A stretch of DNA of 64,000 bases from an uncultured Candidatus Saccharibacteria bacterium (GCA_964391935.1 CAYMOA010000002.1:995-64994); one strand, 5' to 3'. Shown: positions 24,933-38,135, counted from the stretch's first letter. Notes: generated by a model from the sequence alone, not told the origin. A program made the numbers and translations.

Positions 24933-24944
24933 ATTTTAATTATA

Positions 24945-25042
24945 ACATAAAGAAAAATACCTAAGGGTACACTTATCCTTTAGGTCTTGTTCCCAAAGTT
25001 ATTTTCCATTAGCGGAAGATGTGGAACGATGTTCGACAAGCA
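24945..25042. repeat. Degenerate copy (E0) of the attC-like intergenic palindromic element
   Basis: The right arm ttagcggaagatgtggaacgatgttcgacaag resembles the conserved gcggaagRccatatacaaYgttcggca. An upstream imperfect hairpin acctaaggg…ccctttaggt replaces the usual terminator hairpin. Confidence 0.4.
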
Positions 25043-25068
25043 ATTGTCGAGGACATTTAACTATTAAA

Positions 25069-26446
25069 CTATTTCTTTAACCATTTCAGTATCATTTTTG
25101 CTAATAAATTACCTATCTCATTCCAAGCATCACCTAAGCTTGGTTCTAGTTTCTTTGGTTCAATCGTTATATCCTTTTGCAATCTCAATCTATCAAATTC
25201 TTCTGCATATCTATTTCTTTTTTTAAGAGTCAGTAAGTTATAAAGTAAAGCCAAGATAACTAACAACGGCAAAGGAGTTAGAAGTTCATAAACATGATTT
25301 TTATTAAAATCTCCTTCAATTTCAAACTTCATTTTTACACCTCTTTGACCACTAACAAGAGATTTGAACAAATTTTCTTCGGCTTTATGTGTAGAAAAAT
25401 AAGTTAGAACTCTCGGATCGTTTGCATTAAAGTATTTAATCAGTTCAAAAACTTTTTCATAATTTGGTTTACTACTAACTCCGAAAATACTTTCTGAAAT
25501 TTGTCCTAGTTGTCCTACTTCAGCAGTATCTAAAACTCGCTCAAGGGAACTTAATTTAATATTCTCTATTGCTTCCCTTCCAATCCCTGCTTGTTCAAAT
25601 GCTTGCTTTGCAATTTTATATACATCATCAAGTCTTTGTTTTGCCAATTTTTCATTGTCAGGACTTGAATTACCAATACTTTTAGGTCCAGCAAACTTTT
25701 CATCTTCATTAGATGCAAGACCAGTCATTTCAATTCCCTTAACTCTTGTATCATTCAAATCAAAACGAATTTTACCAGTTGCCTCATCAAAATACTTACC
25801 ACTGTTTAATCCGTAGATTTCTAGTGCCTCCCAAGAGCGTTGCATAATAATTTGGTCACTCATTCTTTCTTTCAACAATCTAACCATCTCATCTAAAATA
25901 GTTTTCTCTTGCTCTGGGGTTAGTGATTTTATGTTTGCAAATTTTCTACTAAATTCTGATGGTAATGCCACTTCGATAAACATTTGTCTTTTACATCTTT
26001 CCGATATTGAAAAACCAAGTGGGACTAAAACGGAACCATAGTTAAATGATTTTGTTCCGTCCTCGTTATACTTAAAGAAACGAGCAAAAAACTCTGGTTT
26101 ATGTATTGTTTGGCAAACATCTTCATAAGTATCTTCTACCAACTTTTTCAGTGCTTGATTTTCGTAAATTGCACTTGAAACTCCAGTTAGTGGTCTCTGA
26201 CCGTACATGTGTTCATTGTAATTTTCTTTTACAGGTACAAAGTTTAACCAGGCAGAAAGTAGTGCAGTAGTAATAATCCCAGTTTTAACTCCAGATGGAA
26301 CACCCTTCATCCCTTGTGCTCTGTCATATATCATATCCACATACAAATCTTCACCTTGAATAGTAATAGGTTCTTTTGGTAGCCACTTTCTACCTACTTC
26401 TCTTGTAATACGAACTGGTGGTTTTGGTTCTTTTAGGTTTGCCATA
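25069..26446 (-). CDS. Hypothetical protein (cassette gene)
   Basis: The called ORF starts inside the repeat element. The more likely start is MANLKEPK at 26446 (~459 aa). No motif recognised. Confidence 0.5.
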
Positions 26447-26476
26447 TCATGAAATAGTATATTACAAAAAAACCCT

Positions 26477-26583
26477 TTTGCCGAACCTGGCATTTTGTAT
26501 CATTTCTTAGTAAAGAAAAAATCCTTGTTTTACAAGGATGATTTCGTTAGCGGAAGGCCATATACAACGTTCGGCAGAGTATT
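26477..26583. repeat. attC-like imperfect-palindromic intergenic element E1
   Basis: tttgccgaacctggcattttgtatca…ccttgttttacaagg…gcggaaggccatatacaacgttcggcagagtatt. Terminal inverted repeats TGCCGAAC/GTTCGGCA, internal hairpin plus T-run. Confidence 0.7.
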
Positions 26584-26599
26584 ATTGAAGAATATAAAA

Positions 26600-27139
26600 C
26601 TAAATTGTAACTATGTTCAAGAAATCTGATACGAATTTTTCTAACTCTTTCGTAAAATCTTCTCTCTGCTCGGGCGACATTTTAGCATACGGTTTTAGGT
26701 CGGGTTGCTTTTTCTCCAACTCTAACAATCTATCTTTTACCTCACATTCATTCATTCTCTTTACCGATTTCAAAGCAACTCTAATCCAGTTCAAAAGTGG
26801 TGATAGTTTATTTACCCTATTCTTATCACTTTGATAAAACTCAACAAAAGGTTTTCCATATTTCTTACCCATCTCCATCCTCCACTTTCTGCGAGAAGTA
26901 TGGTCTATACCAAAATTATCAACAATTCTTTTTAATGCTAAAAATCTTTTTGCAACATCTACTGTTTTTTCAAATAACTGAAATTCTGTTACACCCATAA
27001 ATTGAGAAAGACCTAGATTTAATTCTCTATCTTTGTATTGGTTATTACCCTCAATTATTATCAAAGAATTTTCTTGTATAAATTTATCTTCATAGAAAAA
27101 TTCCATTTGTTTTTCGGTAGGATTTATATTCTCTGACAT
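26600..27139 (-). CDS. Hypothetical protein (cassette gene)
   Basis: 179 aa ORF flanked by repeat elements E1 and E2. Confidence 0.5.
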   Translation of the reverse strand: MSENINPTEKQMEFFYEDKFIQENSLIIIEGNNQYKDRELNLGLSQFMGVTEFQLFEKTVDVAKRFLALKRIVDNFGIDHTSRRKWRMEMGKKYGKPFVEFYQSDKNRVNKLSPLLNWIRVALKSVKRMNECEVKDRLLELEKKQPDLKPYAKMSPEQREDFTKELEKFVSDFLNIVTI

Positions 27140-27166
27140 ATATAAAATTATATCAACAAAAACTCA

Positions 27167-27268
27167 TTTTGCCGAACTTAGCATTTTGTATCACCTCTTG
27201 TAAAAGAAAAAACCCTTGATTTACAAGGACTATTTCAGGTACGGAAGGCCATATACAATGTTCGGCAA
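27167..27268. repeat. attC-like imperfect-palindromic intergenic element E2 (102 bp)
   Basis: ttttgccgaacttagcattttgtatcacc…ccttgatttacaagg…ggtacggaaggccatatacaatgttcggcaa. Ends 1 nt before the stop codon of the adjacent gene. Confidence 0.7.
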
Positions 27269-27269
27269 T

Positions 27270-28316
27270 CTATTCTGAAGGAAAATCTTGTACATATTTC
27301 TCATTAACCTTATTAGACATAGCCATCATTATTTCTCTACTAAATTCTCTTGACTCCCCTTTAGACTTCATTTGTTTTCTAAAAGATAAAATGGCCTCTT
27401 TGAAACTTCCATATTTTTCAACTATCAATCTTAGTACACTCCAAGCTAGAGCATTTTGTTGCCTCTCCGTCAGAGCTTTATAATCTTCCTCCATTTCAAG
27501 TGCTGATTCTACAATATAGGCTAACATTGATTCTTCAAAAACTTCGTCTGTGACTGGCTGTTCATATTTTAATAAAAAATTACATTTTTCACTTGGTTTG
27601 TTTAATAAAGCAGTCGCAGCAGAAAAAACTTGGGCCCCCATTGACTTAAAATATTCACTCAATCTACCGTGCAGAACTCCATAAGGTGCACCGATAGTAA
27701 TGGAGGCCTTAGGAGCAAGACTAGCAAAGTATTTATGTTTAGTTAGTTCTTCTGTAAAGTTCTGTGCAACAAAAATATCCCTCTCTCTTTGGGCTTCTAC
27801 AATATCAACACAAGTTTTTTCCCACATATCTAGTAAATACTCATAACTATCACTTCTAAATCTATCAAATAAAATCATTCTCGCCCATCTTTGTCTACTT
27901 AAAGCTTGGTCTACTTTATAAGTCCCAGCTACCTTATCTCTTGCTTCACTACATACAATTAGTGGTTGGTATTCTGGACTTTCTTTTACATACTCTCTTA
28001 AGGCAGTCGCCAAACCTTCAACAAATTCATTTCTAATTCTTGGGAATTTTACATCTTTTCCAAGAACATAATCTTGAATGTCAGATAAATCTTCATCTCT
28101 AGCACGAACAAGTTCTAGTAAAATAATTTCTGGTTTATCTTTAAGAGAAAGTAAATTATTTACCGCGTTTATTCCATCTTGTGTTGTGCCGTGAAGTAAG
28201 CGAAGACTAACAAAGTTAACCGACTCCAAATTACTCATTCCTTTGCTTCTCAAAGATTCCACTAAAGAATTATTTTCTATTTTATTTTCACTTTGTTTTC
28301 TAAATTCAATACTCAT
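27270..28316 (-). CDS. Hypothetical protein (cassette gene)
   Basis: 348 aa ORF, no recognisable motif. Confidence 0.5.
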   Translation of the reverse strand: MSIEFRKQSENKIENNSLVESLRSKGMSNLESVNFVSLRLLHGTTQDGINAVNNLLSLKDKPEIILLELVRARDEDLSDIQDYVLGKDVKFPRIRNEFVEGLATALREYVKESPEYQPLIVCSEARDKVAGTYKVDQALSRQRWARMILFDRFRSDSYEYLLDMWEKTCVDIVEAQRERDIFVAQNFTEELTKHKYFASLAPKASITIGAPYGVLHGRLSEYFKSMGAQVFSAATALLNKPSEKCNFLLKYEQPVTDEVFEESMLAYIVESALEMEEDYKALTERQQNALAWSVLRLIVEKYGSFKEAILSFRKQMKSKGESREFSREIMMAMSNKVNEKYVQDFPSE

Positions 28317-28345
28317 AATAAATAAAGTATATCAGTAAAAATAAC

Positions 28346-28451
28346 TTTGCCGAACTTACGCGTTTGTATCACTTCTTGTAAAAGAAAAAACCCTTAATTT
28401 ATAAGAGTTTTTTCGTTAGCGGAAGACCATATACAATGTTCGGCAAAGTAT
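28346..28451. repeat. attC-like imperfect-palindromic intergenic element E3
   Basis: tttgccgaacttacgcgtttgtatcac…cccttaatttataag…gcggaagaccatatacaatgttcggcaaagtat. Confidence 0.7.
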
Positions 28452-28484
28452 CCAGGAAGAAACCCTATCAACTTAGAAAGAAAA

Positions 28485-29153
28485 TCATCTCATTTTCCGC
28501 CTTTCTGCGTTTTCTTTATTTTCAAACTTTTCTACTATTTGTGGAATTTTGTTTCTATCAGACACAACCACTACTCCAATACTCTCCAATTCACTAATCT
28601 GCTCTTTAGACAACTTCCCAGTAGTATTTACACAAATTTGCACTAAATTTTTAGGAACTCTTCCTTGAACAAAATGACGGAAAGTATCGTCTATGAAAAC
28701 AACCTTATCTGTTCCATTTAAGGCACAAAATTTACGAATATAGTTTTCTTTATCTTCATCTGTATATTCCACTTTTTTAAACAAACTACTTATACCAGCA
28801 GCTTTTACTTTTTTCTCTTGAAATTCCTTGTCGCCATACGTAAGTAAAACCATATTTTCTTCACCATATTTTTCAGCCAATTTACTGGCAAAAGGAAACG
28901 TGAAATTGTGTATACCCGCGAACATTGTATCACTGACAATACTTTCATCAATATCAATTTGATGCTCGTGGGCGACATAATAAATAAATTTTTTAAAGCT
29001 AAATGTTGGACTCAACACCCTATAACCGTCATAATACTCTTTCGTCTTTTCTGGGGAAATTCCATATTCTAAAAATGCAGAATATATCCTTTCTGACTTA
29101 AATCTTGCCGTATCAAAAATTGTGTCGTCAAAGTCAATTAGAATTTTTATCAT
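28485..29153 (-). CDS. HAD-superfamily hydrolase
   Basis: N-terminal ILIDFDDTIFDT (DxDxT motif I), later motif-III-like Lys and Asp. 222 aa. Confidence 0.6.
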   Translation of the reverse strand: MIKILIDFDDTIFDTARFKSERIYSAFLEYGISPEKTKEYYDGYRVLSPTFSFKKFIYYVAHEHQIDIDESIVSDTMFAGIHNFTFPFASKLAEKYGEENMVLLTYGDKEFQEKKVKAAGISSLFKKVEYTDEDKENYIRKFCALNGTDKVVFIDDTFRHFVQGRVPKNLVQICVNTTGKLSKEQISELESIGVVVVSDRNKIPQIVEKFENKENAERRKMR

Positions 29154-30129
29154 AATTTAATATCTTTTGTATTACTCGCCTAAGTTTATCATAATCGTGA
29201 CGGATATAACTCTTATTCGGGTCACCTTTTTGTTTATTAGCTAAATTAGTAGTAAGTAGTTTAGATGTAAAAATTCTCTTGTCTTGTGCCATATCATTTC
29301 TAACCTCCACACCTTCCCCTTCTTTTTCTAAATACTTTGAAAGTTGTTCACTTATAAATTTTTGATTATTGAATACTATAAAATTAATGTTACGTCCAAT
29401 ATATTTTTCTATCTCACTAACATAATTACTCAAAGTCCAATTTAAGGTATGACCTTTTCTATTAGTCAGGTTAGCAATGTAAATTATTTTAGCGCTAGAG
29501 TTTTGTATAGCACTCTTAAAACCATCAACTAATAAATTTGGCAAAATTGAACAGAAATGATCCCCAGGTCCGATAATAATATAGTCTGCATTCACCAATA
29601 CTTCTTTTGCATTTGGATTAATTTTTACCAACTCCTTAATATGAACACTTTTTATTGGATTATTTTCTATTTCATAATCATAAATCTTAAATTCCCCCTC
29701 AATTTTTTGATTATCTGATAGATTAGCCACAAGTGTTGCTTGTTTATCTAAAACAGGGATAACCTCTCCATTAATTTTCAAAATTCTAGATGCGGTTAAA
29801 ATTCCTTTATTAAAATCTCCTGTAATTTTTTCTAATGTTGCAAGTAAAATACTTCCAAAACTAAATCCCTCCAATTTCCCAGTATCAAATCTATATGACA
29901 TTAGTTTTCTGACAACTTCCGTTTCTTCAGAAAGTGCAGTCAAACATTGGCGTACATCGCCAGGTGGTAGCACCCCTAACTCATCCCGTAAAATTCCTGT
30001 GGAACCCCCATTGTCTGTCATACACACAATCGCACTTATAGAAATGTTTTTTATTTTTTTTATCCCAGATAACAAATTATATCCACCAGTTCCCCCACTT
30101 ATTGTAACTATTTTTTTCATAGAATTCAT
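29134..30129 (-). CDS. YvcK/CofD-family (UPF0052, 2-phospho-L-lactate transferase-like) protein
   Basis: IVTISGGTGGYNLLSG…AIVCMTDNGGSTGILRDELGVLPPGDVRQC matches the conserved N-terminal core of the family. Confidence 0.75.
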   Translation of the reverse strand: MNSMKKIVTISGGTGGYNLLSGIKKIKNISISAIVCMTDNGGSTGILRDELGVLPPGDVRQCLTALSEETEVVRKLMSYRFDTGKLEGFSFGSILLATLEKITGDFNKGILTASRILKINGEVIPVLDKQATLVANLSDNQKIEGEFKIYDYEIENNPIKSVHIKELVKINPNAKEVLVNADYIIIGPGDHFCSILPNLLVDGFKSAIQNSSAKIIYIANLTNRKGHTLNWTLSNYVSEIEKYIGRNINFIVFNNQKFISEQLSKYLEKEGEGVEVRNDMAQDKRIFTSKLLTTNLANKQKGDPNKSYIRHDYDKLRRVIQKILNYDKNSN

Positions 30130-30191
30130 TACTATCTTAAGATAATACTTATTACATTATGATAACATAATAATTTCTATTCTAGGCTTAA

Positions 30192-30285
30192 GTGTTTTGT
30201 ATCACCACTTATTAAAGAAAATACCCTTATTAAATAAGGGTATTTTCTTTGGCGGAAGACTATATACAACGTTCGGCAGAGTATT
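30192..30285. repeat. attC-like intergenic element E4 (left arm diverged)
   Basis: …gtgttttgtatcacc…aatacccttattaaataagggtattttctttggcggaagactatatacaacgttcggcagagtatt. Perfect 10-bp hairpin plus T-run. Confidence 0.65.
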
Positions 30286-30296
30286 TTAATGAAAAA

Positions 30297-31001
30297 TTAA
30301 ACTTTATTTTTGAGTACAATTCCTCGCCCAGCATAATACTTTAAGAAGTCCAAAACTAACAATGTGTGCCCAACTTGTGTCTTTGTGCTGCGAAAACCAG
30401 ACGGATTATTTATGGTAATTGTATTTTCTTTTAAATTGTATCCAGTTACAACAACCAAATGTCCGCCTTTTTGATTTAATGGCGCAGTATCGTATCCACG
30501 GATGTTTGGATTTACAGATGCAATTATCAGATTCTCATTGCTAAGCGCATACTGTATTCCTTTAATATTTAACTTTGTGAAAACTTCTGCTTTCAGATTA
30601 TACTTATCGACCCAATTTGCAAACTCTCTATATTTCATATTTGAGATTATTTCTCCTTCAACTTCATATACACCATTCTTCAGTGCATCTTCTGCCAACA
30701 CTACTGGTTTTATTTTTTCGCCTTTATAAAAATCTAAAATCATAGATGTGCAAGCCATACCACACATTGTAAATGCCCATTTTTCATATTCTTCTTTTGA
30801 ACTTGCCCCAGTAACCTCCCAATTTAAATCGTCTATTGTTTTTAACTCTTTTCTTAAAATTGGCTCCGCGTTCTCTGGGATTGAGAATTGGCAAACATAT
30901 GGAACATTATTTTCTACTTTATTTTTAATAGCAGAAAAATTTGACTTAAGTTTATATAAAACATTTTTAGTTTCCTGATTAATCTTATTTAGAACTTTCA
31001 T
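30297..31001 (-). CDS. Papain-like cysteine peptidase, C39-like domain
   Basis: Candidate catalytic Cys in WAFTMCGMACTSMIL and His in QKGGHLVVVTGYN. 234 aa. Confidence 0.5.
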   Translation of the reverse strand: MKVLNKINQETKNVLYKLKSNFSAIKNKVENNVPYVCQFSIPENAEPILRKELKTIDDLNWEVTGASSKEEYEKWAFTMCGMACTSMILDFYKGEKIKPVVLAEDALKNGVYEVEGEIISNMKYREFANWVDKYNLKAEVFTKLNIKGIQYALSNENLIIASVNPNIRGYDTAPLNQKGGHLVVVTGYNLKENTITINNPSGFRSTKTQVGHTLLVLDFLKYYAGRGIVLKNKV

Positions 31002-31042
31002 TTTCTTTATTATATTACAAAATGAGAATTAATTAATTCCAA

Positions 31043-31113
31043 CAAAAAATACCCTTATTAAATAAGGATATTTTTCTTTGCGGAAGACTATATGCAATGT
31101 TCGGCAAAGTATT
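31043..31113. repeat. attC-like intergenic element E5 (right arm plus hairpin only)
   Basis: aaaaatacccttattaaataaggatatttttctttgcggaagactatatgcaatgttcggcaaagtatt. Confidence 0.6.
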
Positions 31114-31133
31114 TTAGATGAAAATATCTAATT

Positions 31134-31562
31134 TTAGTATTTCTTCAACCACTCACCCATCATTTTTATTTCTCCTTCTTGGGCAGAAATAATTTGATTA
31201 GCAAAAGTTTTTAATTCTGGACTAACAGTAGGGTCAGCTAGAAGCTTCTTTGCCATATCTACTGCCCCTTGATGATGAGGTATCATTCCGACTATAAACT
31301 CTTTTTCCAACGCTTTACCTGTTTTACCATCCATCATACCTACCATATCATTCATAGTCATATCCATCATACTTTCACCATTATTCATCATCATAGAACC
31401 ATCTGGCATTTTGTGCATATTGCCCATCATATTTCCACTCATTTTATTTCCACCCATCATATTTCCTTGATTGTGGAAAAAAATTGTATCCCAGTGCCAA
31501 GCATAAGTCACCAATAATATACCAGCCAAAACAATTGTTGTAATTTTATAATCTATTTTCAT
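31134..31562 (-). CDS. DUF305 family protein with Met-rich (MxxM/MMxM) segment, putative copper-binding
   Basis: C-terminal IPHHQGAVDMAKKLL…ISAQEGEIKMMGEWL is the DUF305 ferritin-like core. The preceding ~50 aa contain >15 Met in MMG/MxM repeats. Confidence 0.7.
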   Translation of the reverse strand: MKIDYKITTIVLAGILLVTYAWHWDTIFFHNQGNMMGGNKMSGNMMGNMHKMPDGSMMMNNGESMMDMTMNDMVGMMDGKTGKALEKEFIVGMIPHHQGAVDMAKKLLADPTVSPELKTFANQIISAQEGEIKMMGEWLKKY

Positions 31563-31605
31563 AAGTTTTTTTAATTTGGATGTGATTTAATTATTTTTAT
31601 GTTCC

Positions 31606-32205
31606 TCACATTAAGAGCATAAAAGAAGCCATCGCAAACATAATTCCATTTTCCAGCAAAGTAATATTTGTCATCGGGAAGTTAAATACTGTTCCCAAAC
31701 AAACGCACTGTATTTCTTGTTTGTTTTTAATTGAAATATAGGCACTGTAAATACCTAGTCCTGCAAGTATGAAAGCAACAAAGTTTTGGAGAAAAAACAT
31801 AAATCCTGCAAGATACATTATACCCAACCCTATTTCAATAAAAGGATAAAGATATCCAAATCCTGACCATTTCTTTGTAATAACATCGTAAGTTTGGAAA
31901 CCTTCTGCGAAGCCTGTTAGGTCATAGAGTTTGAACAGTCCAAAAGTAATAAAGAAAATGCCCATAAAGTCCATCATTAGCATCATAAAATCTAGTCCAT
32001 AAACAAACTGTCTAATTAGTGAAAGAAATACAATTCCTGCAAACACATAAAAAAAGGGTAGCAATTTTTGTAAATCACTTCTGTTTTTCTTTTCTACTTT
32101 TAGAGAATGATGTACACAGAAATAATGTATTATATTTTTTAAATCGACTTCACTGTGAGTTGCAAACATACTACAAAGTTCACATTTTTGATTTAAGTTT
32201 TGCAT
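31606..32205 (-). CDS. MauE/DoxX-like polytopic membrane protein with N-terminal Cys/His cluster
   Basis: Start moved to MQNLNQKCELC to remove overlap. CELC…H…CVHH followed by five hydrophobic helices. The MauE/DoxX-like assignment is tentative. Confidence 0.4.
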   Translation of the reverse strand: MQNLNQKCELCSMFATHSEVDLKNIIHYFCVHHSLKVEKKNRSDLQKLLPFFYVFAGIVFLSLIRQFVYGLDFMMLMMDFMGIFFITFGLFKLYDLTGFAEGFQTYDVITKKWSGFGYLYPFIEIGLGIMYLAGFMFFLQNFVAFILAGLGIYSAYISIKNKQEIQCVCLGTVFNFPMTNITLLENGIMFAMASFMLLM

Positions 32206-32209
32206 AATT

Positions 32210-32707
32210 TTAATGCCCGTGTTCGGGTGTATTTTCCCCTTCAAGTGTTGTGTGCAAGTCAAAAGCCAAGTCTTTAATTACAAAGTTTGACAACAAAAGC
32301 AAAACTATAGAAAATACAAAAACAATAATCACATTTTTTGTATTTAATTTTAATTTGTCTTTCCAAAAATAAGTTAAATATGATACAAAAATACCAATGG
32401 AAAGTAAATATCCTGCATAAACTGGATTATCTAAATAGTGTTGTATTCCACCAGAAAGAAAGCCAGTCGCAAATGAAAGTCCTGTAAGAATAAACAGATA
32501 GTTTAAGTCTATTTTTTGACCATTCTGTTTTGCTTCTATTATGTTTCCAACAATCATTAAAACTAAACCAATTACACCTAAAATTATGTATCGTAGAAAA
32601 CCATTTTGCAATGTTCCAATGTGAACAACCGAACCAGCGATTAGCGCAACACCGAGATATTTTATAAGGTAAGTGAAATACTTTTTATTATCGTTTGAAA
32701 TTTGCAT
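32210..32707 (-). CDS. Hypothetical polytopic membrane protein
   Basis: 165 aa with multiple TM helices. Confidence 0.4.
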   Translation of the reverse strand: MQISNDNKKYFTYLIKYLGVALIAGSVVHIGTLQNGFLRYIILGVIGLVLMIVGNIIEAKQNGQKIDLNYLFILTGLSFATGFLSGGIQHYLDNPVYAGYLLSIGIFVSYLTYFWKDKLKLNTKNVIIVFVFSIVLLLLSNFVIKDLAFDLHTTLEGENTPEHGH

Positions 32708-32708
32708 A

Positions 32709-33044
32709 TTATTTTTCTAATTCTTTACCTAATTTATAAAAAAGCACAGCACCCAACCCCCAAGCAAATGGTAGCCAAAGTGGAATAGATAAAAAGTTGG
32801 AGTTGTTCCAAACCTGCACCCTATCTAGTCCAGTCAAACCAACTTCAATAAATAATCCCAAAAGGAAACTTATTGAATATAAATATGCTTCTACACCTCT
32901 ATTATTAGAGATTGAAAACAAAAAACTTGAAAACATCAATACTAGTAGAAGAGGGATATACTCATTGCCATGAAAAAGAACTTCTATTGCAAAAAAAATT
33001 ACAGGTAGGGATAGATATTTAAGAATTATTTTTGTATTTTTCAT
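32709..33044 (-). CDS. Hypothetical small membrane protein
   Basis: 111 aa with three hydrophobic helices. Confidence 0.4.
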   Translation of the reverse strand: MKNTKIILKYLSLPVIFFAIEVLFHGNEYIPLLLVLMFSSFLFSISNNRGVEAYLYSISFLLGLFIEVGLTGLDRVQVWNNSNFLSIPLWLPFAWGLGAVLFYKLGKELEK

Positions 33045-33045
33045 A

Positions 33046-33342
33046 CTATTTTCTTTTAAGTTTATATACCTTAATAATCTCTTTCTGCATTTCTTCCAAT
33101 CTATTTTTGTTTGTTTCTTTATGCAAACAATGTGCCAAATGACTTTCTAACATTTCATCTTCTAGACCAGAAATCGCACTTTTAATTGCAGAAGTTTGTG
33201 TGATGATGTCTATACAATACTTATCATCTAGTATCATCTTTTCAACTCCATTTAACTGCCCGGCAATTCGTTTGAGGCGAGTTAGTATTTTTTTGTTATC
33301 TTTGTTTATACCGTGCATAAAATGAGCCCTTACCTGCAACAC
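33046..33342 (-). CDS. csoR: CsoR/RcnR-family metal-sensing transcriptional repressor
   Basis: 98 aa. LTRLKRIAGQLNGVEKM… with C (YCID) and H-x3-C (HLAHC) in the positions of the CsoR Cys/His/Cys Cu(I) ligand set. Confidence 0.75.
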   Translation of the reverse strand: MLQVRAHFMHGINKDNKKILTRLKRIAGQLNGVEKMILDDKYCIDIITQTSAIKSAISGLEDEMLESHLAHCLHKETNKNRLEEMQKEIIKVYKLKRK

Positions 33343-33463
33343 TTAGTTACACAGTTTGTGCAAGAACAGTTTGAACACTTACAAGTTGGACAAGAACATT
33401 TTGAATTTTTCATATATATTGTGAGTGGGAGTTTTTTATGGATTTCTACCACTAGGATTTTAG

Positions 33464-33484
33464 TATATACCCCCATAGGGTATA
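33464..33484. promoter_or_regulatory. Putative CsoR operator (TATACCC-N5-GGGTATA)
   Basis: 7-bp inverted repeat with a C/G-tract centre, ~120 bp upstream of csoR on the transcribed side. It resembles known CsoR boxes of the form ATACCC…GGGTAT. Confidence 0.5.
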
Positions 33485-33506
33485 TGTCAAGTAATACAAA
33501 AACACC

Positions 33507-33616
33507 TTTTTGCCGAACTTACGCGTTTTGTATCACCTCTTGTAACAAAAAATACCCTTATTAAATAAGGATATTCTGTTTTGCGGAAGACCATATACAA
33601 TGTTCGGCAGAGTATT
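33507..33616. repeat. attC-like imperfect-palindromic intergenic element E6
   Basis: ttttgccgaacttacgcgttttgtatcacc…aatacccttattaaataagg…gcggaagaccatatacaatgttcggcagagtatt. Confidence 0.7.
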
Positions 33617-33657
33617 TTAGAGGAGAAATTGATGTTTTATATAAATTAACTTGCTAA

Positions 33658-34443
33658 TCATATTTCTAAGCCTTTAACTTCTTCACTGTCTACAGAGTAA
33701 TCAAGTGAGAATGGAGTAAGGTCTCTCTCTTCTTTACTATTTGAAAAATAACGAATTGTAACTGCATAGGTATTTATGCAAACACTTTCTCTGAATAATT
33801 TAACCTTTTCGTCAGTTGTATCTGTTTCTAGGACACTTACGTCAATTTGTGGGATTTTTTTTTGAATATCAAAATAACCAGCTTCATTCAAACTAATTGA
33901 AAAGGTTTGATATATTTTCGGCCCTAATTCATATGTTTCAATGTATTTTTGTCGCCAAGCACCTCTCCAATATGATACATTTCCCCCGTTTTGAAATTTA
34001 TCCATTTCTTTAAAAGAATTTATACCTAGTTTAATGTCAGAATAAGGAATTATTGGGTTAAAATTTTTATCTCTTGTTGTGACTGAATATATTATAACTT
34101 TTCCATTAAGGTCTGTCTGAATGGCAACATAAAACAACTTATTTATGAAAATACAGTTCTTAACATTTTCAACTACATTTACAATTACTGGAGCACCTAG
34201 ATTTTCTATAAAAAAACCTATATCTATTCCAGGGCGAAGTTTATTTATTCTCTTTAGCCAGTATTTAGTTTTAAAAAATTTCTTGTAGACATATTCATAG
34301 GAAATACTGATTCCACCCAAACCTCCTAAAATGGTAAATACACCAAGAATTATAGCAAAAAAATAAAATGAATTTAAAAAATAAATTAAAGCTCCTAATT
34401 TGTAGTAGATTTTTATGAATATAAAAATGATAAAATCATACAT
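33658..34443 (-). CDS. Hypothetical membrane-anchored protein
   Basis: 261 aa with N-terminal hydrophobic segments. No motif recognised. Confidence 0.45.
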   Translation of the reverse strand: MYDFIIFIFIKIYYKLGALIYFLNSFYFFAIILGVFTILGGLGGISISYEYVYKKFFKTKYWLKRINKLRPGIDIGFFIENLGAPVIVNVVENVKNCIFINKLFYVAIQTDLNGKVIIYSVTTRDKNFNPIIPYSDIKLGINSFKEMDKFQNGGNVSYWRGAWRQKYIETYELGPKIYQTFSISLNEAGYFDIQKKIPQIDVSVLETDTTDEKVKLFRESVCINTYAVTIRYFSNSKEERDLTPFSLDYSVDSEEVKGLEI

Positions 34444-34446
34444 AAT

Positions 34447-34902
34447 TTAATTAAATTTACTTTCCCAAATTTTTACAACTTCCAGAGATTTTTCTTCCAG
34501 TTCTATATCTTGTATAATTTCAATAGGTTTCAAGAACATTTTATTAATTTGTTCTGTTGAGTAATCTCCACCATAGTAAAGATTGGAAAGTTTATCCTTG
34601 GAAAGTGCAAAAACTATTTTAGAAATTCCTGACCACATACAAGCATTTAGACACATTGCGCAAGTTTCCATACTTGCGTAAAGGGTTGCACCAGTTAAAT
34701 CTGAACTTTGTATGTTTTTACAAGCATTACGTATACATTGAAGTTCGCCGTGTGAAGTGGGGTCGTGTAATACATTTCCAATACTAATTCCTTCACCAAT
34801 TATTTTCCCGTCTTTTACAATTACAGTACCAGCAGGAAAACCACCCTCATTTACTGACTTTTGTGCTTGGTCTATTGCGATTTGTAAATAATTTTTTTCC
34901 AT
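34447..34902 (-). CDS. CMP/dCMP-type zinc deaminase (TadA/guanine deaminase-like)
   Basis: HGELQCIRNA (H-x-E) and TCAMCLNAC (C-x-x-C) are the zinc-binding motifs of the cytidine/deoxycytidylate deaminase fold. Confidence 0.75.
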   Translation of the reverse strand: MEKNYLQIAIDQAQKSVNEGGFPAGTVIVKDGKIIGEGISIGNVLHDPTSHGELQCIRNACKNIQSSDLTGATLYASMETCAMCLNACMWSGISKIVFALSKDKLSNLYYGGDYSTEQINKMFLKPIEIIQDIELEEKSLEVVKIWESKFN

Positions 34903-34932
34903 AACTATATTTTATCATTTTTACCTAACAAA

Positions 34933-34946
34933 AGGTATCTGGATAC
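34933..34946. promoter_or_regulatory. Perfect palindrome GGTATCTGGATACC (copy 1), putative operator
   Basis: 14-bp perfect inverted repeat, ~45 bp upstream of the ATG at 34989. Identical copies at 36618 and 38203. Confidence 0.5.
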
Positions 34947-34988
34947 CAAAGTTTTACAACTCCAACAACTTGAGATATATTTAAATAT

Positions 34989-35462
34989 ATGGAAACACAA
35001 ACACTTTCAGGAACAGAAAAAACCAAGTTTAACGCACTCACTCACGGCATTTTGAGTGAAAGTGTGTCTGACTATGAGAAAGCAGACTACGAGGCAATTT
35101 ACAAGGAATTTGAGGCAGATATAAAACCAAAAGGAATGACAGAAATAGCTCTTACTGAGATAGTAACTATGAGCTACATAAAGAGAAAAAGAATCAATAA
35201 GGCGGAAGTGGAACTTATCAAAGGAACACTAGACCCACTAAAGTTGAGAGAAGTTACGGAATACTCAAATCGTGAGAATCTGCCAGTAGACAAAATTGTA
35301 ATTCGCAATGAATATGTCAGTGGATACAAAACGGAACTAACAGCTGATGCAGTGCAAAGAATGGACTTGTATTCTAGATACGAAACATCTAATGATAACA
35401 GATTTTACAAAGCACTATTTATGATTCAAAAGTTAAGAGAAGGAAATAGTCCGACTGTATAA
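34989..35462 (+). CDS. Hypothetical protein
   Basis: 157 aa ORF preceded by the GGTATC…GATACC palindrome. Confidence 0.45.
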   Translation: METQTLSGTEKTKFNALTHGILSESVSDYEKADYEAIYKEFEADIKPKGMTEIALTEIVTMSYIKRKRINKAEVELIKGTLDPLKLREVTEYSNRENLPVDKIVIRNEYVSGYKTELTADAVQRMDLYSRYETSNDNRFYKALFMIQKLREGNSPTV

Positions 35463-35489
35463 TTCCGTTTCGCAAAATAACACTTTAAA

Positions 35490-36437
35490 TTACTTAGCTT
35501 TGTAAATCATCTCCCCATCAGACTCCACAGTCATAACTTTCCAGTTGTAATCTTCGTAAATTGCATTTGAATTTTCTTCACCAATATATTTAACAGTTAC
35601 ATCAAAATGAGTTTTAATCATAGCACCAAAACTATTTTGACTGTCTACACTTTGACTAACAACAAAGGTTTTACTATCAGTAGTTTTAGTTGATGGGTAA
35701 CCAAAATCTGCTGTGCTAGGAGCTTTCAAAGATTGTTTAATTAAGTTCTTTGAAATTCTCTCAACTGCTGTTTCTTTGCCACTTGCTAGAGGGTCAATTT
35801 TCTTAACAATTACTCCTGTAAATATATTTGAGTCTTTTAGAGCTTTAACATATTTCACTTCATAGTTTGGAGAATTATCTACCAGATTTAGTTGGTTCAA
35901 AATTATGTTTTTATCCTCAATACTATTTAAGTTGCTATGGTCATTTGCTGATGGTAAAAAGAAATCTATCACTGATTTAGATTTTAAATCATATGTCACA
36001 ATCATTTGTAATTTATCTTTTTCAAAAGTCATATCTGGGTTATCTCCATCATATGTATTCCCTTTGGGAATGTATTTAGATTTTGGCTGTCCAAATTTAG
36101 CCACTACATCATCAATACTTTTTCCCAATAAGTCAGAGATATCAAAAATAGCAGGAGTATTAACTTGTTCTTGTTGTCTTTTTTCTAAGTCTGCCACCTG
36201 TTGTCCTTTATCTTTTGCACTTGAGAAATTAGAAACAATTATTGAAAATAATATGAAGCCAATAAAGGTTGAAATTATCCAGTGTCTTCTAAACCAGTTT
36301 CTAATATCAGAATGACAGTGGGGACATTTAGTAGCACCAGCATCTACTTCTTTTTTACAGTAAGGACAAGTATTCAAACGTGTTTTTGTTTCCATATTTA
36401 TTATATTATTTAAATAGCTAGGACTTTTTCTAATCAA
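35490..36437 (-). CDS. Zinc-ribbon membrane-anchored protein (hypothetical)
   Basis: N-terminal CPYCKK…CPHCHS zinc ribbon, one TM helix, then an extracytoplasmic domain. 315 aa. Confidence 0.5.
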   Translation of the reverse strand: MIRKSPSYLNNIINMETKTRLNTCPYCKKEVDAGATKCPHCHSDIRNWFRRHWIISTFIGFILFSIIVSNFSSAKDKGQQVADLEKRQQEQVNTPAIFDISDLLGKSIDDVVAKFGQPKSKYIPKGNTYDGDNPDMTFEKDKLQMIVTYDLKSKSVIDFFLPSANDHSNLNSIEDKNIILNQLNLVDNSPNYEVKYVKALKDSNIFTGVIVKKIDPLASGKETAVERISKNLIKQSLKAPSTADFGYPSTKTTDSKTFVVSQSVDSQNSFGAMIKTHFDVTVKYIGEENSNAIYEDYNWKVMTVESDGEMIYKAK

Positions 36438-36617
36438 AAAGCCCCTAACCAGTTTCTAGTAGTTGTCTACTACATAACCGTTTCCAGTTATGGCACACGT
36501 AATGCAAAAGACCTGATTAGGGGTTCTTTATTCATTACGTGTGACTTGAAACCGTATCTTGTATTCCTACACGACCTTAGGTTTATGGATATATTCTAGC
36601 ATTTTTCTTTCAAAGTT

Positions 36618-36631
36618 GGTATCTGGATACC
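36618..36631. promoter_or_regulatory. Perfect palindrome GGTATCTGGATACC (copy 2) abutting the CD-NTase promoter
   Basis: Lies immediately upstream of -35. Confidence 0.5.
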
Positions 36632-36640
36632 AAAAAATAA

Positions 36641-36669
36641 TTGACACGATATGGTGCGGGGAGTAAAAT
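36641..36669 (+). promoter_or_regulatory. Sigma70-like promoter TTGACA-N17-TAAAAT for the CD-NTase gene
   Basis: Consensus -35, 17-nt spacer, A/T-rich -10, then 6 nt to the ATG at 36676. Confidence 0.5.
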
Positions 36670-36675
36670 TAAGGT

Positions 36676-37560: not shown

Positions 37561-37562
37561 AT

Positions 37563-38093
37563 ATGATACAAGAACTAAAATTGGAACAAAAAGTTGATAT
37601 TTTAATTTCTGCAATTGAAGAAAGATATAATGTATTGCATAAAATTAGAGAAAGAGTTCAAAGTGTAGGTTTATGGGCAATAGGACTGTCTTTATCTTCT
37701 GGTGGTTGGTTGATACAAAGTGGATTATCACTAACACCGTCCCAAAAGTTTTTTTATATATCTGGTATTTTATTGGCAACTTATTTTTTGAGACAAAACT
37801 ATCTTGAAGATTTGAGAAAAGGCTTTAAAGCTCAGCAATTAGTTACTGCAAAATTAGAAAAAGCCCTTGGACTTTTTGAAATTGGAATGTTTGATAACGA
37901 GAAAGAATCTATTTTCCCAAAATCTTGGGAACAGGCAGGTCAAAAAAATGGCGGTGGTAATTTTTTCAAAACTACTTTTTTACTTCTATACCTCGCTGTT
38001 TCATTTATGGCTTTATCTATCTATTTTGCCAAAGCACCAAATGAGGTTAATGTTGTAAGTGATAATGTTTTAAAATTTGAGGCTACAAAGTAA
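37563..38093 (+). CDS. SLATT-like 2-3 TM putative CBASS effector
   Basis: 176 aa starting 3 nt after the CD-NTase stop. Helical N-terminus, TM helices VGLWAIGLSLSSGGWLIQ, FFYISGILLATYFL and TTFLLLYLAVSFMALSIYF. Confidence 0.5.
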   Translation: MIQELKLEQKVDILISAIEERYNVLHKIRERVQSVGLWAIGLSLSSGGWLIQSGLSLTPSQKFFYISGILLATYFLRQNYLEDLRKGFKAQQLVTAKLEKALGLFEIGMFDNEKESIFPKSWEQAGQKNGGGNFFKTTFLLLYLAVSFMALSIYFAKAPNEVNVVSDNVLKFEATK

Positions 38094-38135
38094 AAATAAT
38101 CAGTTAATTTATGGGAGAACTCAGGATGTTTTGAA

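Follow-up and report, generated by a model that had tools for sequence, protein, structure and literature searches.

What joined the unrelated genes that lie between 24.95 and 33.62 kb of this 64-kb stretch of DNA (the window), and what is the repeat that parts them? A preliminary description took the copies of the repeat for attC sites of an integron and the whole for a cassette array of CALIN type. Its general logic, unrelated, co-oriented minus-strand genes parted by a recombination-site-like repeat, is borne out by our analysis. The position of the unit boundary, the link to tRNA-Ser, the recombinase family and the attP geometry lead us to conclude that the repeats are probably junctions of accreted, tandemly integrated units, belonging to an integrative family that targets tRNA-Ser 3' ends in CPR/Patescibacteria.

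The seven copies (E0–E6, ~115 nt each) all lie on the same strand, where they had been described. A repeat search of the window grouped five or six of them, in families of 143 and 84 nt. When searched against the 64 kb, a profile HMM built from E1–E4 and E6 matched six copies, all on the minus strand between 26.46 and 33.62 kb (E = 9e-34 to 2e-17), with no further match under E = 0.04 in the rest of the 64 kb; E0 was detected solely by a mismatch scan (25012–25038, 8/26 mismatches). The motif TGCCGAAC occurs 12 times in the window against 0.41 expected, ten of these inside the array. Every copy lies 3' of a gene, with a gap from stop codon to TGCCGAAC of 2–48 nt and not the 1–15 nt first reported, and no target-site duplication is visible at the copies.

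On the gene (minus) strand, the proximal side reads AATACT-TGCCGAAC-N-TTGTATATGGY-CTTCCGC, then ~10 A-rich nt and a perfect hairpin of 8–18 bp with a T-run; the distal side reads ACAAGAG-GTGATACAAAA-N6/7-GTTCGGCA, followed by a TATAAT-like box and an ATG. The order at a junction is arm and core, then terminator hairpin, GTGATACAAAA and a -35/-10 promoter. The most conserved portion is the 27-nt arm, TGCCGAAC-N-TTGTATATGGT-CTTCCGC, which has 0–2 mismatches in 26 in E1–E6 and at loci L002–L005 and L056 of other genomes, the cargo being unrelated at every copy. Over its final 5–7 nt (CTTCCGC), the arm matches tRNA-Ser genes at their 3' end. Full copies do fold as single-stranded DNA, on either strand, into the long bulged hairpin that had been proposed (z = -2.8 to -5.3). 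The junctions are as follows.

25012–25038, minus strand: E0, variant proximal (P) arm and core, TGTCGAACATCGTTCCACATCTTCCGC; terminal junction of the array (attR-type)
26470–26586, minus strand: E1 (HMM E = 9e-34); P arm and core 26550–26576, terminator hairpin 26521–26539, GTGATACAAAA-like motif 26493–26503, GTTCGGCA 26479–26486 (source of the -35-like TCGGCA)
27161–27276, minus strand: E2 (E = 1.5e-33); P arm and core 27241–27267 (core CTTCCGT), hairpin 27211–27231, GTGATACAAAA 27184–27194, GTTCGGCA 27170–27177
28339–28454, minus strand: E3 (E = 3.3e-33); P arm and core 28419–28445, hairpin ~28385–28413, GTGATACAAAC 28362–28372, GTTCGGCA 28348–28355
30172–30287, minus strand: E4 (E = 5.6e-30); P arm and core 30252–30278, 18-bp perfect hairpin 30214–30250, GTGATACAAAA 30195–30205
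31038–31115, minus strand: E5 (E = 2.2e-17); P arm and core 31080–31106, hairpin 31046–31074, distal arm absent
33502–33618, minus strand: E6; P arm and core 33583–33609, then, as left end of the csoR cassette, hairpin, GTGATACAAAA 33526–33536 and GTTCGGCA 33511–33518

Of the incomplete copies, E5 has no distal arm, and in E4 GCCTAGAA stands in place of GTTCGGCA but GTGATACAAAA is kept. E0 is not simply decayed: it belongs to a different arm subtype, which resembles the arm of the related element L064 (AACCGAACATCGTCCCAAGTCTTCCGC), and the flank beyond it is unrelated (TAATGGAAAATAAC..., another hairpin, then the phnA-like gene).

The boundary of a unit lies at CTTCCGC. A near-isogenic pair of an occupied and an empty site (L002 2790–6332 and L060 9607–6065, 99.944% identical) begins to be identical exactly at CTTCCGC: the empty site reads tRNA-Ser...CACTTCCGC|TAAAGCATAAC..ruvX, and the occupied site ...TGCCGAACGTTGTATATAGTCTTCCGC|TAAAGCATAAC..ruvX. 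Five tRNA-Ser-adjacent copies also map unit boundaries to the internal CTTCCGC, and the terminal junctions E0, L002, L003, L004, L056 and L064 consist of the proximal arm and core alone, without the second half of the palindrome.

The arm is tied to tRNA-Ser genes elsewhere. At six loci in other CPR genomes, it closes a DNA segment whose start is a tRNA-Ser 3' end. At L003, L004 and L005, it follows a tRNA-Ser gene of the same strand at a distance of 500–650 nt, with three different isoacceptors and one small gene between tRNA and arm; at L056 and L064, it closes elements of 9.6 and 7.1 kb, respectively, both of which start at tRNA-Ser(TGA). Such complete elements (7–10 kb) have a single recombinase, a large serine recombinase of ~560 aa whose last codons overlap the tRNA, and the called genes of L056 and L064 have no other recombinase and no Phage_integrase match on record. 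A scan of 185,579 species representatives yielded only four real loci, with one exact arm copy each. All contigs found for the organism were identical to the window, and no strain lacking a single cassette, array variant or excised circle was recovered, which counts against our explanation.

The window itself encodes a recombinase of this family, SR565, and the features relevant to it are listed here.

40030–41727, plus strand: SR565, large serine recombinase of 565 aa, candidate integrase (Resolvase domain match)
41647–41714, minus strand: inferred attP, P' half, which lies within the final 27 codons of the SR565 gene
41715–41800, minus strand: left partner of the SR565 junction, GGAAGCT-GGGGTACTTAACTCACATGGCCCGC, kept in L065 along with the adjacent 221-aa gene
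33658–39230: body of the recombinase-bearing element, with minus-strand genes for a 261-aa membrane protein and a deaminase; a 157-aa ORF, a zinc-ribbon protein and LOOT RNA; plus-strand genes for a CD-NTase-like protein and proteins of 176 and 270 aa; and a conserved 53-aa ORF (~39069–39230)
61437–61524, minus strand: tRNA-Ser(TGA), ending ...CTCACAGCTTCCGC, with the same 7-nt core

SR565 is placed at the end of its own element, divergent from the cassette array and 6.4 kb away from it. It has 201 homologues at E < 1e-10, most of them ~560 aa long and from Parcubacteria-type genomes, many with Resolvase and Recombinase domains. The 3' ends of homologues 46–60% identical to SR565 overlap or abut a convergent tRNA-Ser gene (L053, L055, L056, L057, L063/L064); at L059, the homologue meets tRNA-Asn instead. 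In six loci, the recombinase gene physically overlaps the att site. In these 3' ends, GTTCGGCA is followed by a hairpin, TTTGTATCAC and GCGGAGG (tRNA strand, reverse complement), and 41647–41718 of the window has the same set of motifs. The SR565 3' end bears the partner motif GTGATACAAA; on the minus strand, after CCGC (41718–41715), the P' half reads AGG-GTGATACAAAG-TTCACTG...hairpin...TGCCGAAC. By analogy with L056 and L064, the recombinase-bearing element would have its right end (attR) in the arm and core of E6. The scan of 65 window ORFs detected no Phage_integrase domain, which agrees with the earlier remark that no tyrosine integrase is visible.

At the head of the array, ARAGORN called no tRNA in 41715–41800; this stretch is either what decay has left of a tRNA-Ser 3' end or the terminus of an adjoining element. 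That no tRNA is recognisable there, the functional tRNA-Ser(TGA) being 20 kb off, counts against our explanation. This tRNA-Ser(TGA) is a candidate primary attB, and it may anchor the whole accessory region from 61.4 to 25.0 kb.

Joining the SR565 3'-end motif to the E6 arm rebuilds a pseudo-palindromic attP of ~48 bp centred on CTTC|CGC. Counted from this centre, TTGTAT and ATACAA both lie at positions 10–15, and in the window GTTC lies at 17–20 on both sides. CGAA is at 18–21 in the arm vs 13–16 in all five tRNA-Ser genes examined, so that the arm has it 5 bp farther from the centre than the tRNA T-loop does. In serine integrases, the ZD motif of attB lies 5 bp closer to the centre than that of attP (PMC3783163). 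The displacement of CGAA equals this shift, and the geometry, as read from sequence, fits a serine integrase. The tRNA side reads CCTCCGC or GTTCCGC and the arm reads CTTCCGC, polymorphisms that would place the exchange point inside TCCGC or just right of it. Two features of the sites count against our explanation. The arm and core have a dyad of their own, centred on TTGTA|TATGG with arms TGCCGAAC/CTTCCGCA, that is, an 11+6+11 pseudo-palindrome of dif-like geometry. In recombinase-less cassettes, the junctions are not canonical attP sites, because a terminator hairpin of ~45 nt parts the core from GTGATACAAAA and GTTCGGCA is displaced outward, lying 6–7 nt further out than in the arm. We know of no serine integrase that uses such cassette-junction sites or recombines attP with attL.

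We propose the following model. The right end of a unit would be the conserved 27-nt arm, whose last 5–7 nt (CTTCCGC) equal the acceptor end of tRNA-Ser and would hold the crossover point, and the left end of the next unit would begin directly after the core. In autonomous units (7–10 kb), the first motif would be GTGATACAAA, placed within the 3' end of the unit's large serine recombinase gene, which is convergent with the tRNA; recombinase-less cassettes would begin with a rho-independent terminator, then GTGATACAAAA-N6/7-GTTCGGCA and a promoter. In the window, the SR565 element would span ~41.71 to 33.58 kb, and six cassettes without a recombinase would come after it, down to E0 (25.01 kb). 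Arm, core and SR565 3' end would form the ~48-bp pseudo-palindromic attP of serine-integrase type, and the tRNA T-arm plus acceptor the attB half-site. Each cassette's terminator would restore a 'tRNA | terminator' target for the next insertion. The sequences themselves show the CTTCCGC boundary, the association of the units with tRNA-Ser, that of the recombinase with the tRNA, and the motifs in common. From these we infer that the enzyme is the serine recombinase, that the array grew by serial insertion and that the cassettes are mobilised in trans.

The cargo of the six recombinase-less units (25069–33342, minus strand) is given in minus-strand order.

31134–33342, minus strand: csoR, 111-aa, Bax1-I-like, MauE/DoxX and DUF305 genes (cassette after E6)
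30297–31001, minus strand: C39-like peptidase
28485–30129, minus strand: CofD-like and HAD
27270–28316, minus strand: 348-aa ORFan
26600–27139, minus strand: 179-aa protein
25069–26445, minus strand: ~458-aa protein

The last of these was called as a 474-aa ORF (25069–26493) that overlaps E1 only by a spurious upstream ATG; its start is likely the ATG at ~26445. The cargo is accessory in type: the 348-aa ORFan has no other match among 5.8 billion proteins, other loci carry a PemK toxin and an AAA_15/DUF4435 ATPase, and the SR565 element encodes the CD-NTase-like protein. The family of the C39-like peptidase is broadly conserved in Parcubacteria and has ordinary contexts in other genomes, an observation that counts against our explanation.

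The preliminary description also considered a terminator-promoter insulator. The repeat does play such a role, though a secondary one. Terminators are predicted on the minus strand at the hairpins of E1 and E2; the -10-like boxes noted after several copies are present as promoter-like sites (TCGGCA-N16/17-TATAAT/TATACT) in the distal arm of E1–E3; and a TTGACA...TATACT promoter containing a CsoR-type palindrome lies past E6. That the repeat is a purely regulatory module, insulating neighbours and spread by local duplication with no role in recombination, is improbable: it leaves unexplained why conservation is strongest in the arm, ahead of the terminator, why this arm ends in tRNA-Ser acceptor sequence and marks the end of inserted DNA in the isogenic pair, and why the same motifs recur in the recombinase gene 3' end. 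A REP/MITE-like non-autonomous or selfish palindromic element, inserted between the genes of an ordinary cluster, could account for intergenic palindromes of ~115 nt with partial copies, for the widely conserved family of the C39-like peptidase and for the organism's short-read contigs breaking at the repeats. This reading is nevertheless very improbable, as all seven copies of the window share one strand, fall within 9 kb and in every case follow the 3' end of a gene, the species-wide scan gave single arms at so few loci, no target-site duplication accompanies them, and elsewhere a lone arm marks the distal end of segments beginning at tRNA-Ser.

Two further alternatives invoke other recombinases. 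IntI encoded elsewhere might recombine folded single strands at G|TT of the terminal GTTCGGC, and the co-oriented array whose units have unrelated cargo and a single site each, the ends GCCGAAC/GTTCGGC (one position off RYYYAAC/GTTRRRY), the ~100-nt site length within the attC range and the single-stranded fold (z = -3 to -5) all resemble an integron. The empty and occupied pair contradicts this reading, because its boundary is the internal CTTCCGC and not GTT. The terminal junctions lack the second palindrome half expected of an integron's last attC, the partner site is a tRNA-Ser 3' end, and the internal loop between the stems is 1×8, not a symmetric spacer with single extrahelical bases. 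The only candidate enzyme is a serine recombinase, tyrosine recombinases being absent from the scanned window ORFs and unrecorded in the complete related elements; the attC/CALIN assignment is not supported, and we give it almost no credence. A tyrosine recombinase outside the window, Xer-like or tRNA-targeting, with CTTCCGC as a 7-bp overlap or the 11+6+11 dyad as a dif-like site and SR565 as a passenger, is unlikely. A common core of 5–7 bp exceeds what a serine integrase needs and is typical of tyrosine recombinases, which counts against our explanation. Also in favour of a tyrosine recombinase, the best dyad of arm and core is internal, and recombinase-less cassettes sit at three tRNA-Ser genes with no recombinase within the 8-kb loci. 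An identical core of this length common to a tRNA 3' end is a classical tyrosine integrase signature (PMC4383910). Against this stand the serine recombinases of L056 and L064, the recombinase genes overlapping att sites and the 5-bp motif shift. A Xer-type exchange in the arm's central GTATAT cannot yield the tRNA junctions seen, because the tRNA shares no identity there.

Junctions made by a tRNA-Ser-targeting serine recombinase, our preferred reading, recall several known systems. Phage-type large serine integrases (A118/LI, Bxb1, phiC31) share the pseudo-palindromic ~50-bp attP with half-sites of ~24–25 bp and the outer motif displaced 5 bp inward in attB (PMC3783163). The Resolvase, Recombinase and zinc-ribbon-type architecture is also common to both; here, in contrast, attB is a tRNA T-arm plus acceptor and the P' half lies inside the integrase coding sequence. 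Phage-type serine integrases are not known to produce arrays in which recombinase-less units have non-canonical P' sides. Tycheposons, like Islander/TIGER-type islands and CIME accretion, involve cargo elements specific for tRNA 3' parts, including tRNA-Ser(TGA), and in the tycheposon survey 27 of 937 integrase-carrying elements had a large serine recombinase (10.1101/2020.12.28.424599). [quoted passage not shown]

Composite SCC/SCCmec islands are built with Ccr large serine recombinases (10.1101/336396, PMC10581047). Their target is rlmH and not tRNA-Ser. Here, in a CPR host, the recombinase gene extends over both att site and tRNA, every unit brings a terminator and a promoter of its own, and units are much smaller, the smallest being a single gene (~0.7 kb). 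As in our system, SCC has its insertion point at the very 3' end of a conserved gene, its tandem units are each bounded by a short core direct repeat and inverted repeats, and recombinase-less units (pseudo-SCC) adjoin a recombinase-bearing one. Integron arrays likewise consist of unrelated, co-oriented, mostly single-gene units in tandem, with ORFan-rich cargo, one structured palindromic site per junction and a recombinase gene divergent from the array. Here, unlike in integrons, the candidate enzyme is a serine and not a tyrosine recombinase, exchange would occur inside the site at CTTCCGC and not at G|TT, the cassettes have their own promoters, the array lacks a Pc, a tRNA gene serves as primary site and the terminal sites are half-sites. 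Hence, the array looks integron-like and yet appears to be the work of different machinery, since its units would be joined by a serine recombinase that targets tRNA-Ser.

A repeat search recovered two families of direct copies at 26.4-33.6 kb, one with five copies of 143 nt and the other with six of 84 nt. An HMM built from five of the copies had six matches in the 64-kb window, every one on the minus strand (E = 9e-34 to 2e-17), and beyond these six copies it gave no match below E = 0.04; a seventh, divergent copy, E0 (25012-25038), was detected by a mismatch scan only. Together, these searches confirmed that the seven-copy intergenic array (E0-E6) of the preliminary description is real. The octamer TGCCGAAC occurred 12 times against 0.41 expected, 10 times within the array, and the genes flanking the copies are all on the minus strand and have unrelated functions. 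In gene direction, a full copy begins with AATACT-TGCCGAAC-N-TTGTATATGGY-CTTCCGC, which we call the proximal (P) arm and core, continues with ∼10 A-rich bases, a perfect hairpin, and a T-run, and ends in a distal arm, ACAAGAG-GTGATACAAAA-N6/7-GTTCGGCA, followed by a TATAAT-like box and the ATG of the next gene. The P arm plus core (33583-33609, and likewise all other P arms) forms an 11+6+11 pseudo-palindrome, TGCCGAACATT-GTATAT-GGTCTTCCGCA, with dif-like geometry. As had been proposed, the folds of full copies were long bulged hairpins, whichever strand was used (z = -2.8 to -5.3). The gap between the preceding stop codon and TGCCGAAC measured 2-48 nt and not the 1-15 nt reported before, and an apparent overlap of a 474-aa ORF with E1 was due to a spurious upstream ATG. 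Three copies had been described as lacking an arm, as expected of decaying sites; E5 has no distal arm, and E4 lacks only its GTTCGGCA. The sequence of E0, TGTCGAACATCGTTCCACATCTTCCGC, resembles the element arm of another genome (L064), AACCGAACATCGTCCCAAGTCTTCCGC, and suggests that E0 is not simply a decayed copy.

The CTTCCG(C/T) cores (n = 7), all in direct orientation, bound one recombinase-bearing and six recombinase-less units. The latter lie downstream of the element that carries the large serine recombinase SR565, each closed by an arm and core, and E0 closes the array, with unrelated sequence beyond. The cargo comprises a csoR copper module, a C39-like peptidase, CofD-like and HAD proteins, and three hypothetical proteins. 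The promoter of the csoR cassette (33462-33490, minus strand) reads TTGACA-N17-TATACT, and its spacer holds the palindrome ATATACCCTATGGGGGTATAT, a predicted CsoR-type operator, so that the copper module looks self-regulated. The 348-aa protein of one cassette (27270-28316, minus strand) had no homologue except itself among 5.8 billion clustered proteins and hence gave no extra context on cassette mobility; homologues of the C39-like peptidase stood in ordinary contexts with no arm and gave no sign of it either. Exact-protein look-ups for strain variants of the array recovered only contigs identical to the window. Logan contigs of the same organism (L051, L052, and L066; SRR12712864 / SRR12712853) start or stop inside E3 and beside E6, indicating that short-read assemblies break at these repeats, and arrays of this kind may therefore be under-represented in MAGs. 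At Rfam gathering thresholds the whole window contained two tRNAs and one LOOT RNA and nothing else, and an E-value scan of 24.8-33.8 kb gave nine matches, all far under the gathering scores of their families; the element is covered by no known RNA family.

We searched for a 25-nt arm pattern in a collection with one genome for each of 185,579 species, from which the window's own genome is absent, and obtained five loci. One of these (L001) was a chance match within a Bacteroides gene. The same held for a metagenome scan with this pattern, in which all 45 loci were one Bacteroides coding sequence, and scans of viral contigs, one per arm pattern, gave no match. The other four loci (L002-L005) are intergenic sites in low-GC MAGs, whose label is 'bacterium' or Candidatus Saccharibacteria. 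Three of these loci have a tRNA-Ser gene, with the anticodon TGA (L003), GCT (L004), or GGA (L005), on the strand of the arm and 500-650 nt upstream of it; between tRNA and arm lies one small gene that encodes a PemK-like toxin (L003), a 145-aa protein with no Pfam match (L004), or a 159-aa protein (L005). These tRNA genes end in ...CACTTCCGC, ...GGTTCCGC, and ...CCTCCGC, respectively, and their last 5-7 bases equal the arm end CTTCCGC. In L005 a hairpin and distal arm near-identical to those of E4-E6 (E = 8e-16) directly follow a pseudo-tRNA-Ser 3' end.

At 122-260 and 884-917, L005 carries two ∼58-nt pseudo-tRNA-Ser 3' halves, which follow its intact tRNA-Ser(GGA), and a 31-nt flank, CAGTARAAAAAATTGTTCGGAGAAAGGCAGC, that is present twice, after the tRNA and after the cassette arm, a duplication not predicted by a simple serine-integrase event. 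ARAGORN called tRNA-Ser genes with the anticodon ACT at L004 5414-5503 and L055 3591-3678, one of them the target of a recombinase element. This anticodon is unusual and might reflect a miscall or a modified-wobble tRNA.

The site was observed both empty and occupied. L060, which came up among contigs holding homologues of the C39-like cargo protein, reads tRNA-Ser(TGA)...CACCACTTCCGC|TAAAGCATAACTAATG...ruvX, and the occupied locus L002 reads ...TGCCGAACGTTGTATATAGTCTTCCGC|TAAAGCATAACTAATG...ruvX. The two are 99.944% identical over 3,543 nt, and the first identical bases are CTTCCGC. Hence, DNA has been inserted at the 3' end of tRNA-Ser, with the arm and core as its right end, and the exchange took place within, or at the edge of, the shared core. 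The core is CCTCCGC or GTTCCGC on the tRNA side and CTTCCGC on the arm side, which narrows the exchange to TCCGC or just right of it. When all junctions were tabulated, the sequence left of the core was either a tRNA-Ser 3' end or a P arm, and that on the right was of three kinds: chromosomal flank, a recombinase-type left end (AGNGTGATACAAA...), or a cassette-type left end consisting of a terminator hairpin and then GTGATACAAAA-N6/7-GTTCGGCA. An attB seen empty and occupied, with a short common core, is what is expected of a large-serine-recombinase element. A DNA uptake sequence, parS, and dif (chromosome-dimer resolution) had been considered for the motif and were dropped, since it is clustered, linked to tRNA-Ser, and bounds inserted DNA.

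We scanned 65 ORFs of the window with Pfam, covering nearly all of at least 110 aa and every one of 250-450 aa, the size range of tyrosine integrases. None of the 65 matched a tyrosine recombinase (Phage_integrase), in agreement with the preliminary description, which had seen no tyrosine integron integrase in the window; two encode large serine recombinases. SR565 (40030-41727, plus strand, 565 aa, PF00239) is separated from E6 by 6.4 kb and oriented divergently to the array. It has 201 homologues at E < 1e-10, most of them ∼560 aa long and many with PF00239 and PF07508, and the named ones belong to Parcubacteria-type genomes (Nomurabacteria, Kaiserbacteria, Paceibacterota). We compared nine independent recombinase contexts, window included. 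In L053, L055, L056, L057, and L063/L064, the recombinase gene converges on a tRNA-Ser, and its last codons overlap the tRNA 3' end or lie directly beside it; the overlapped gene is tRNA-Asn in L059, and the recombinase gene abuts a tRNA-like fragment in L058 and non-tRNA sequence in L065 and the window. A serine recombinase with a Resolvase domain and a large C-terminal region is thus located at the element end, which is the tRNA-proximal one in L053, L055, L056, L057, L059, and L064. At the far ends of the complete elements in L056 and L064, a P arm and CTTCCGC directly follow the last gene, 9.6 kb and 7.1 kb from the tRNA, and no second recombinase, tyrosine type included, is on record among the genes of these two elements. 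Every recombinase 3' end contains GTTCGGCA, an A-run, a hairpin, and TTTGTATCRC, followed by GCGGAGG (the tRNA reverse complement), and the same series of motifs is present in the window at 41647-41718. An ORF of ∼53 aa is conserved beside the recombinase (40-62% identity) in L053, L056, L057, L058, L064, and the window (39069-39230, plus strand) and could encode a directionality factor or regulator.

A non-coding stretch is also conserved with the recombinase in five loci, window included. In the window it lies upstream of SR565 (39258-39588, also 39905-40030) and is 75% identical over 336 nt to its equivalent in L064, whose recombinase has 49% identity to SR565 and belongs to a different clade; L053, L057, and L065 share a second conserved type of upstream sequence. 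The RNA fold had z = -3.1 (plus) and -2.65 (minus), with no Rfam match. In the window stretch, GTTCGGAG and CTCCGAAC make up a long-range pair reminiscent of the arm motif, and the stretch may represent an element-specific ncRNA or act in cis.

If the SR565 element is built like those of L056 and L064, it would span about 8.1 kb between ∼41715 and the E6 arm at 33583. Among its cargo are a CD-NTase-like gene, a LOOT RNA, a deaminase, and a 261-aa ORF, which had been described as a membrane protein and has no Pfam match. Features within these bounds are:

36458-36583, minus strand: LOOT RNA (RF03000), 61.7 bits against a gathering score of 46.4, upstream of the gene for a zinc-ribbon protein
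36676-38948, plus strand: CD-NTase-like protein (weak SMODS match in the window; PF26305 match on record for the identical gene of L066), then ORFs of 176 aa and 270 aa
38959-39025: hairpin AAAATACCCTTATCTTATAAGGGTATTTT after the 270-aa ORF, nearly the same as those of E4-E6 and L005

The genes at 36676-38948 look like CBASS-type defence cargo of the recombinase element, and the hairpin that follows them indicates that the same terminator sequence is reused outside the junctions. The motif GGTATCCAGATACC has three exact copies (34934-34947, 36618-36631, and 38203-38216) against 0.01 expected, all within the putative SR565 element and two of the three in promoter regions, and a regulator encoded by the element probably uses it as its operator. 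The head of the array (41715-41800; GGGGTACTTAACTCAC-N-T-N-GCCCGC), joined to the recombinase-side junction, contains no recognisable tRNA. It may mark where another type of element ends, or it may derive from a tRNA-Ser by decay; the latter is uncertain because 41715-41745 is conserved in L065 (∼11660-11700) together with an adjacent 221-aa gene (75% aa identity over 71 residues). The 41715 region may be a relic junction in a composite island of larger extent, with its anchor in the tRNA-Ser(TGA) at 61.4 kb; the 3' end of this tRNA is CTTCCGC. Downstream of this tRNA are accessory-type genes only, encoding an AAA_5 ATPase, a reverse transcriptase with bAvd, the second serine recombinase, methyltransferases, and an HTH/M78 pair. 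A search for decayed arms between 41.7 and 61.4 kb found none at ≤9 mismatches beyond shuffle level. The second large serine recombinase (53459-54781, plus strand, 440 aa) has Resolvase, Recombinase, and zinc-ribbon domains. The reverse transcriptase (56859-57851, minus strand), the bAvd-like protein (57863-58234, plus strand), and a 682-aa VWA protein are encoded together at 54790-58234 and are predicted to be the gene set of a diversity-generating retroelement.

We joined the arm and core of E6 to the 3' end of SR565, which gave TGCCGAAC-A-TTGTAT-ATGGT-CTTC|CGC-AGGGTG-ATACAA-A-GTTCACTG. In this joined site, TTGTAT and ATACAA occupy positions 10-15 on either side of the centre CTTC|CGC, and GAAC and GTTC occupy positions 17-20. 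In the arm, the CGAA motif spans positions 18-21; in the T-loops of the five tRNA-Ser genes examined, it spans positions 13-16 without exception. The attP of serine integrases has half-sites of ∼24 bp around a central dinucleotide, and an outer motif (ZD) lies 5 bp nearer the centre in attB than in attP (PMC3783163). The half-site architecture and the 5-bp shift of CGAA suggest that the SR565-type recombinase is the integrase, that the T-arm and acceptor of the tRNA serve as the B half-site, and that the arm is the P half-site. Overall, we consider it probable that the elements are junctions in a tandem accretion of integrative units, which target tRNA-Ser and are associated with a serine recombinase.

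The preliminary description had also offered a terminator-promoter unit as a reading, and the sequence agrees with it as a secondary property: the hairpin after the core is a predicted terminator on the gene strand, and the distal arm of E1-E3 has a -35-like TCGGCA 16-17 nt from TATAAT or TATACT. Each cassette would hence carry both its own promoter and a terminator for its upstream neighbour, be it the tRNA or the preceding cassette. A terminator hairpin also follows the core in the native sequence of L064, which suggests that a cassette placed next to the tRNA would recreate the 'tRNA | terminator' target at which a further unit could insert. If units were inserted serially at the junction nearest the tRNA, the recombinase element would end up proximal, as the most recent arrival, and the cassettes distal, which is the order observed. 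A bolder proposal, possible but rather doubtful, is that CPR/Patescibacteria have a functional analogue of integrons based on a serine recombinase, in which a tRNA-Ser-specific enzyme captures and reshuffles recombinase-less single-gene cassettes in trans, its own C-terminal codons form half of attP, and each cassette rebuilds the 'tRNA | terminator' target. Cassettes captured in this way would share the 27-nt arm and a portable terminator-promoter module.

The array had originally been likened to an integron or a CALIN-type attC array, and this logic held in part. The termini GCCGAAC/GTTCGGC indeed have one mismatch each to RYYYAAC/GTTRRRY, the consensus of the R''/R' boxes of attC, and the bottom strand forms bulged hairpins, albeit with an asymmetric 1x8 loop; a folded attC bottom strand has an unpaired central spacer and 2-3 extrahelical bases. 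In integrons, an IntI-type tyrosine recombinase (which may be absent in CALIN) places the crossover between G and TT of the 3' R' box GTTRRRY, and the last cassette, too, ends in a complete attC (R''-L''...L'-R'). Here, however, both the L060/L002 pair and the junctions at tRNA-Ser map the boundary to CTTCCGC and not to G|TT; GTTCGGCA lies ∼70 nt farther downstream. The terminal junctions (E0, L002, L003, L004, L056, and L064) consist of the proximal arm and core only, with no complete attC, the partner site is tRNA-Ser, and a Phage_integrase match is absent from the 65 ORFs of the window and from the records of the related complete elements. Membership of the integron family is therefore not supported.

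Nor do the elements behave as a REP/MITE repeat family, which had been another suggestion. Copies are confined to 9 of the 64 kb, on one strand and with no target-site duplication at the junctions, and there are only four real loci in one genome for each of 185,579 species. A tRNA-anchored island of a tyrosine integrase, of the Islander type or a tycheposon, has its distal end marked by a displaced tRNA fragment of tens of nt. Against it, no tyrosine integrase was found and only 5-7 nt of the distal repeat are common to the tRNA, although L005 does have its two pseudo-tRNA-Ser 3' halves.

Several observations do not fit easily with accretion by a serine integrase. Cassette-type junctions have ∼45 nt between the core and GTGATACAAAA, with GTTCGGCA 6-7 nt further out than in the arm, and would thus be non-canonical attP sites. 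Serine integrases normally do not recombine attP with attL or attR, and a shared core of 5-7 bp is more than they need and is typical of tyrosine integrases. The dyad score at the CTTC|CGC centre was modest (10-12/25), and the best dyad centre of the arm and core was the internal 11+6+11 one, which scored as well as or better than the centre of the attP model. The array head is not a recognisable tRNA, and no variation in array content among strains was recovered, with identical contigs only.

The gene exchange of CPR bacteria, which have tiny genomes, is poorly known, and the system can be searched by sequence: its 27-nt arm is conserved, its 7-nt core is identical to the acceptor end of tRNA-Ser, and its ∼560-aa serine recombinases form a widespread family. 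A description of this recombinase and arm family was not found in the literature that we searched, which was not exhaustive, and a recent study of genomic islands in Patescibacteria mentions neither integrases nor tRNA targets. For serine integrases, a tRNA target class was described as unknown in a 2014 database paper (PMC4383910), and the SR565 family sits on tRNA 3' ends. The family could supply compact tRNA-targeting serine integrases with defined attP and attB for genome engineering. If cassettes were mobilised in trans, integron-like arrays would have a second route of origin, independent in mechanism, and ultra-small genomes a dedicated platform for the acquisition of accessory and defence genes. 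At the least, the case cautions that palindromic intergenic repeats in an integron-like array can be the att-site junctions of islands in tandem.

The array differs from integrons in its boundary, terminal junctions, partner site, and recombinase, and it resembles tycheposons and other tRNA-anchored tandem islands; in a survey of tycheposons, 27 of 937 integrase-carrying elements had a large serine recombinase (10.1101/2020.12.28.424599). By analogy, it would work most like the staphylococcal SCC composite islands, in which a large serine recombinase inserts at the 3' end of a conserved gene and tandem, core-bounded units accumulate, some of them without a recombinase (10.1101/336396; PMC10581047). 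Tandem units bounded by direct core repeats, some lacking a recombinase, are found here as well, whereas SCC has Ccr-family recombinases and targets rlmH, and the target of this array is tRNA-Ser.
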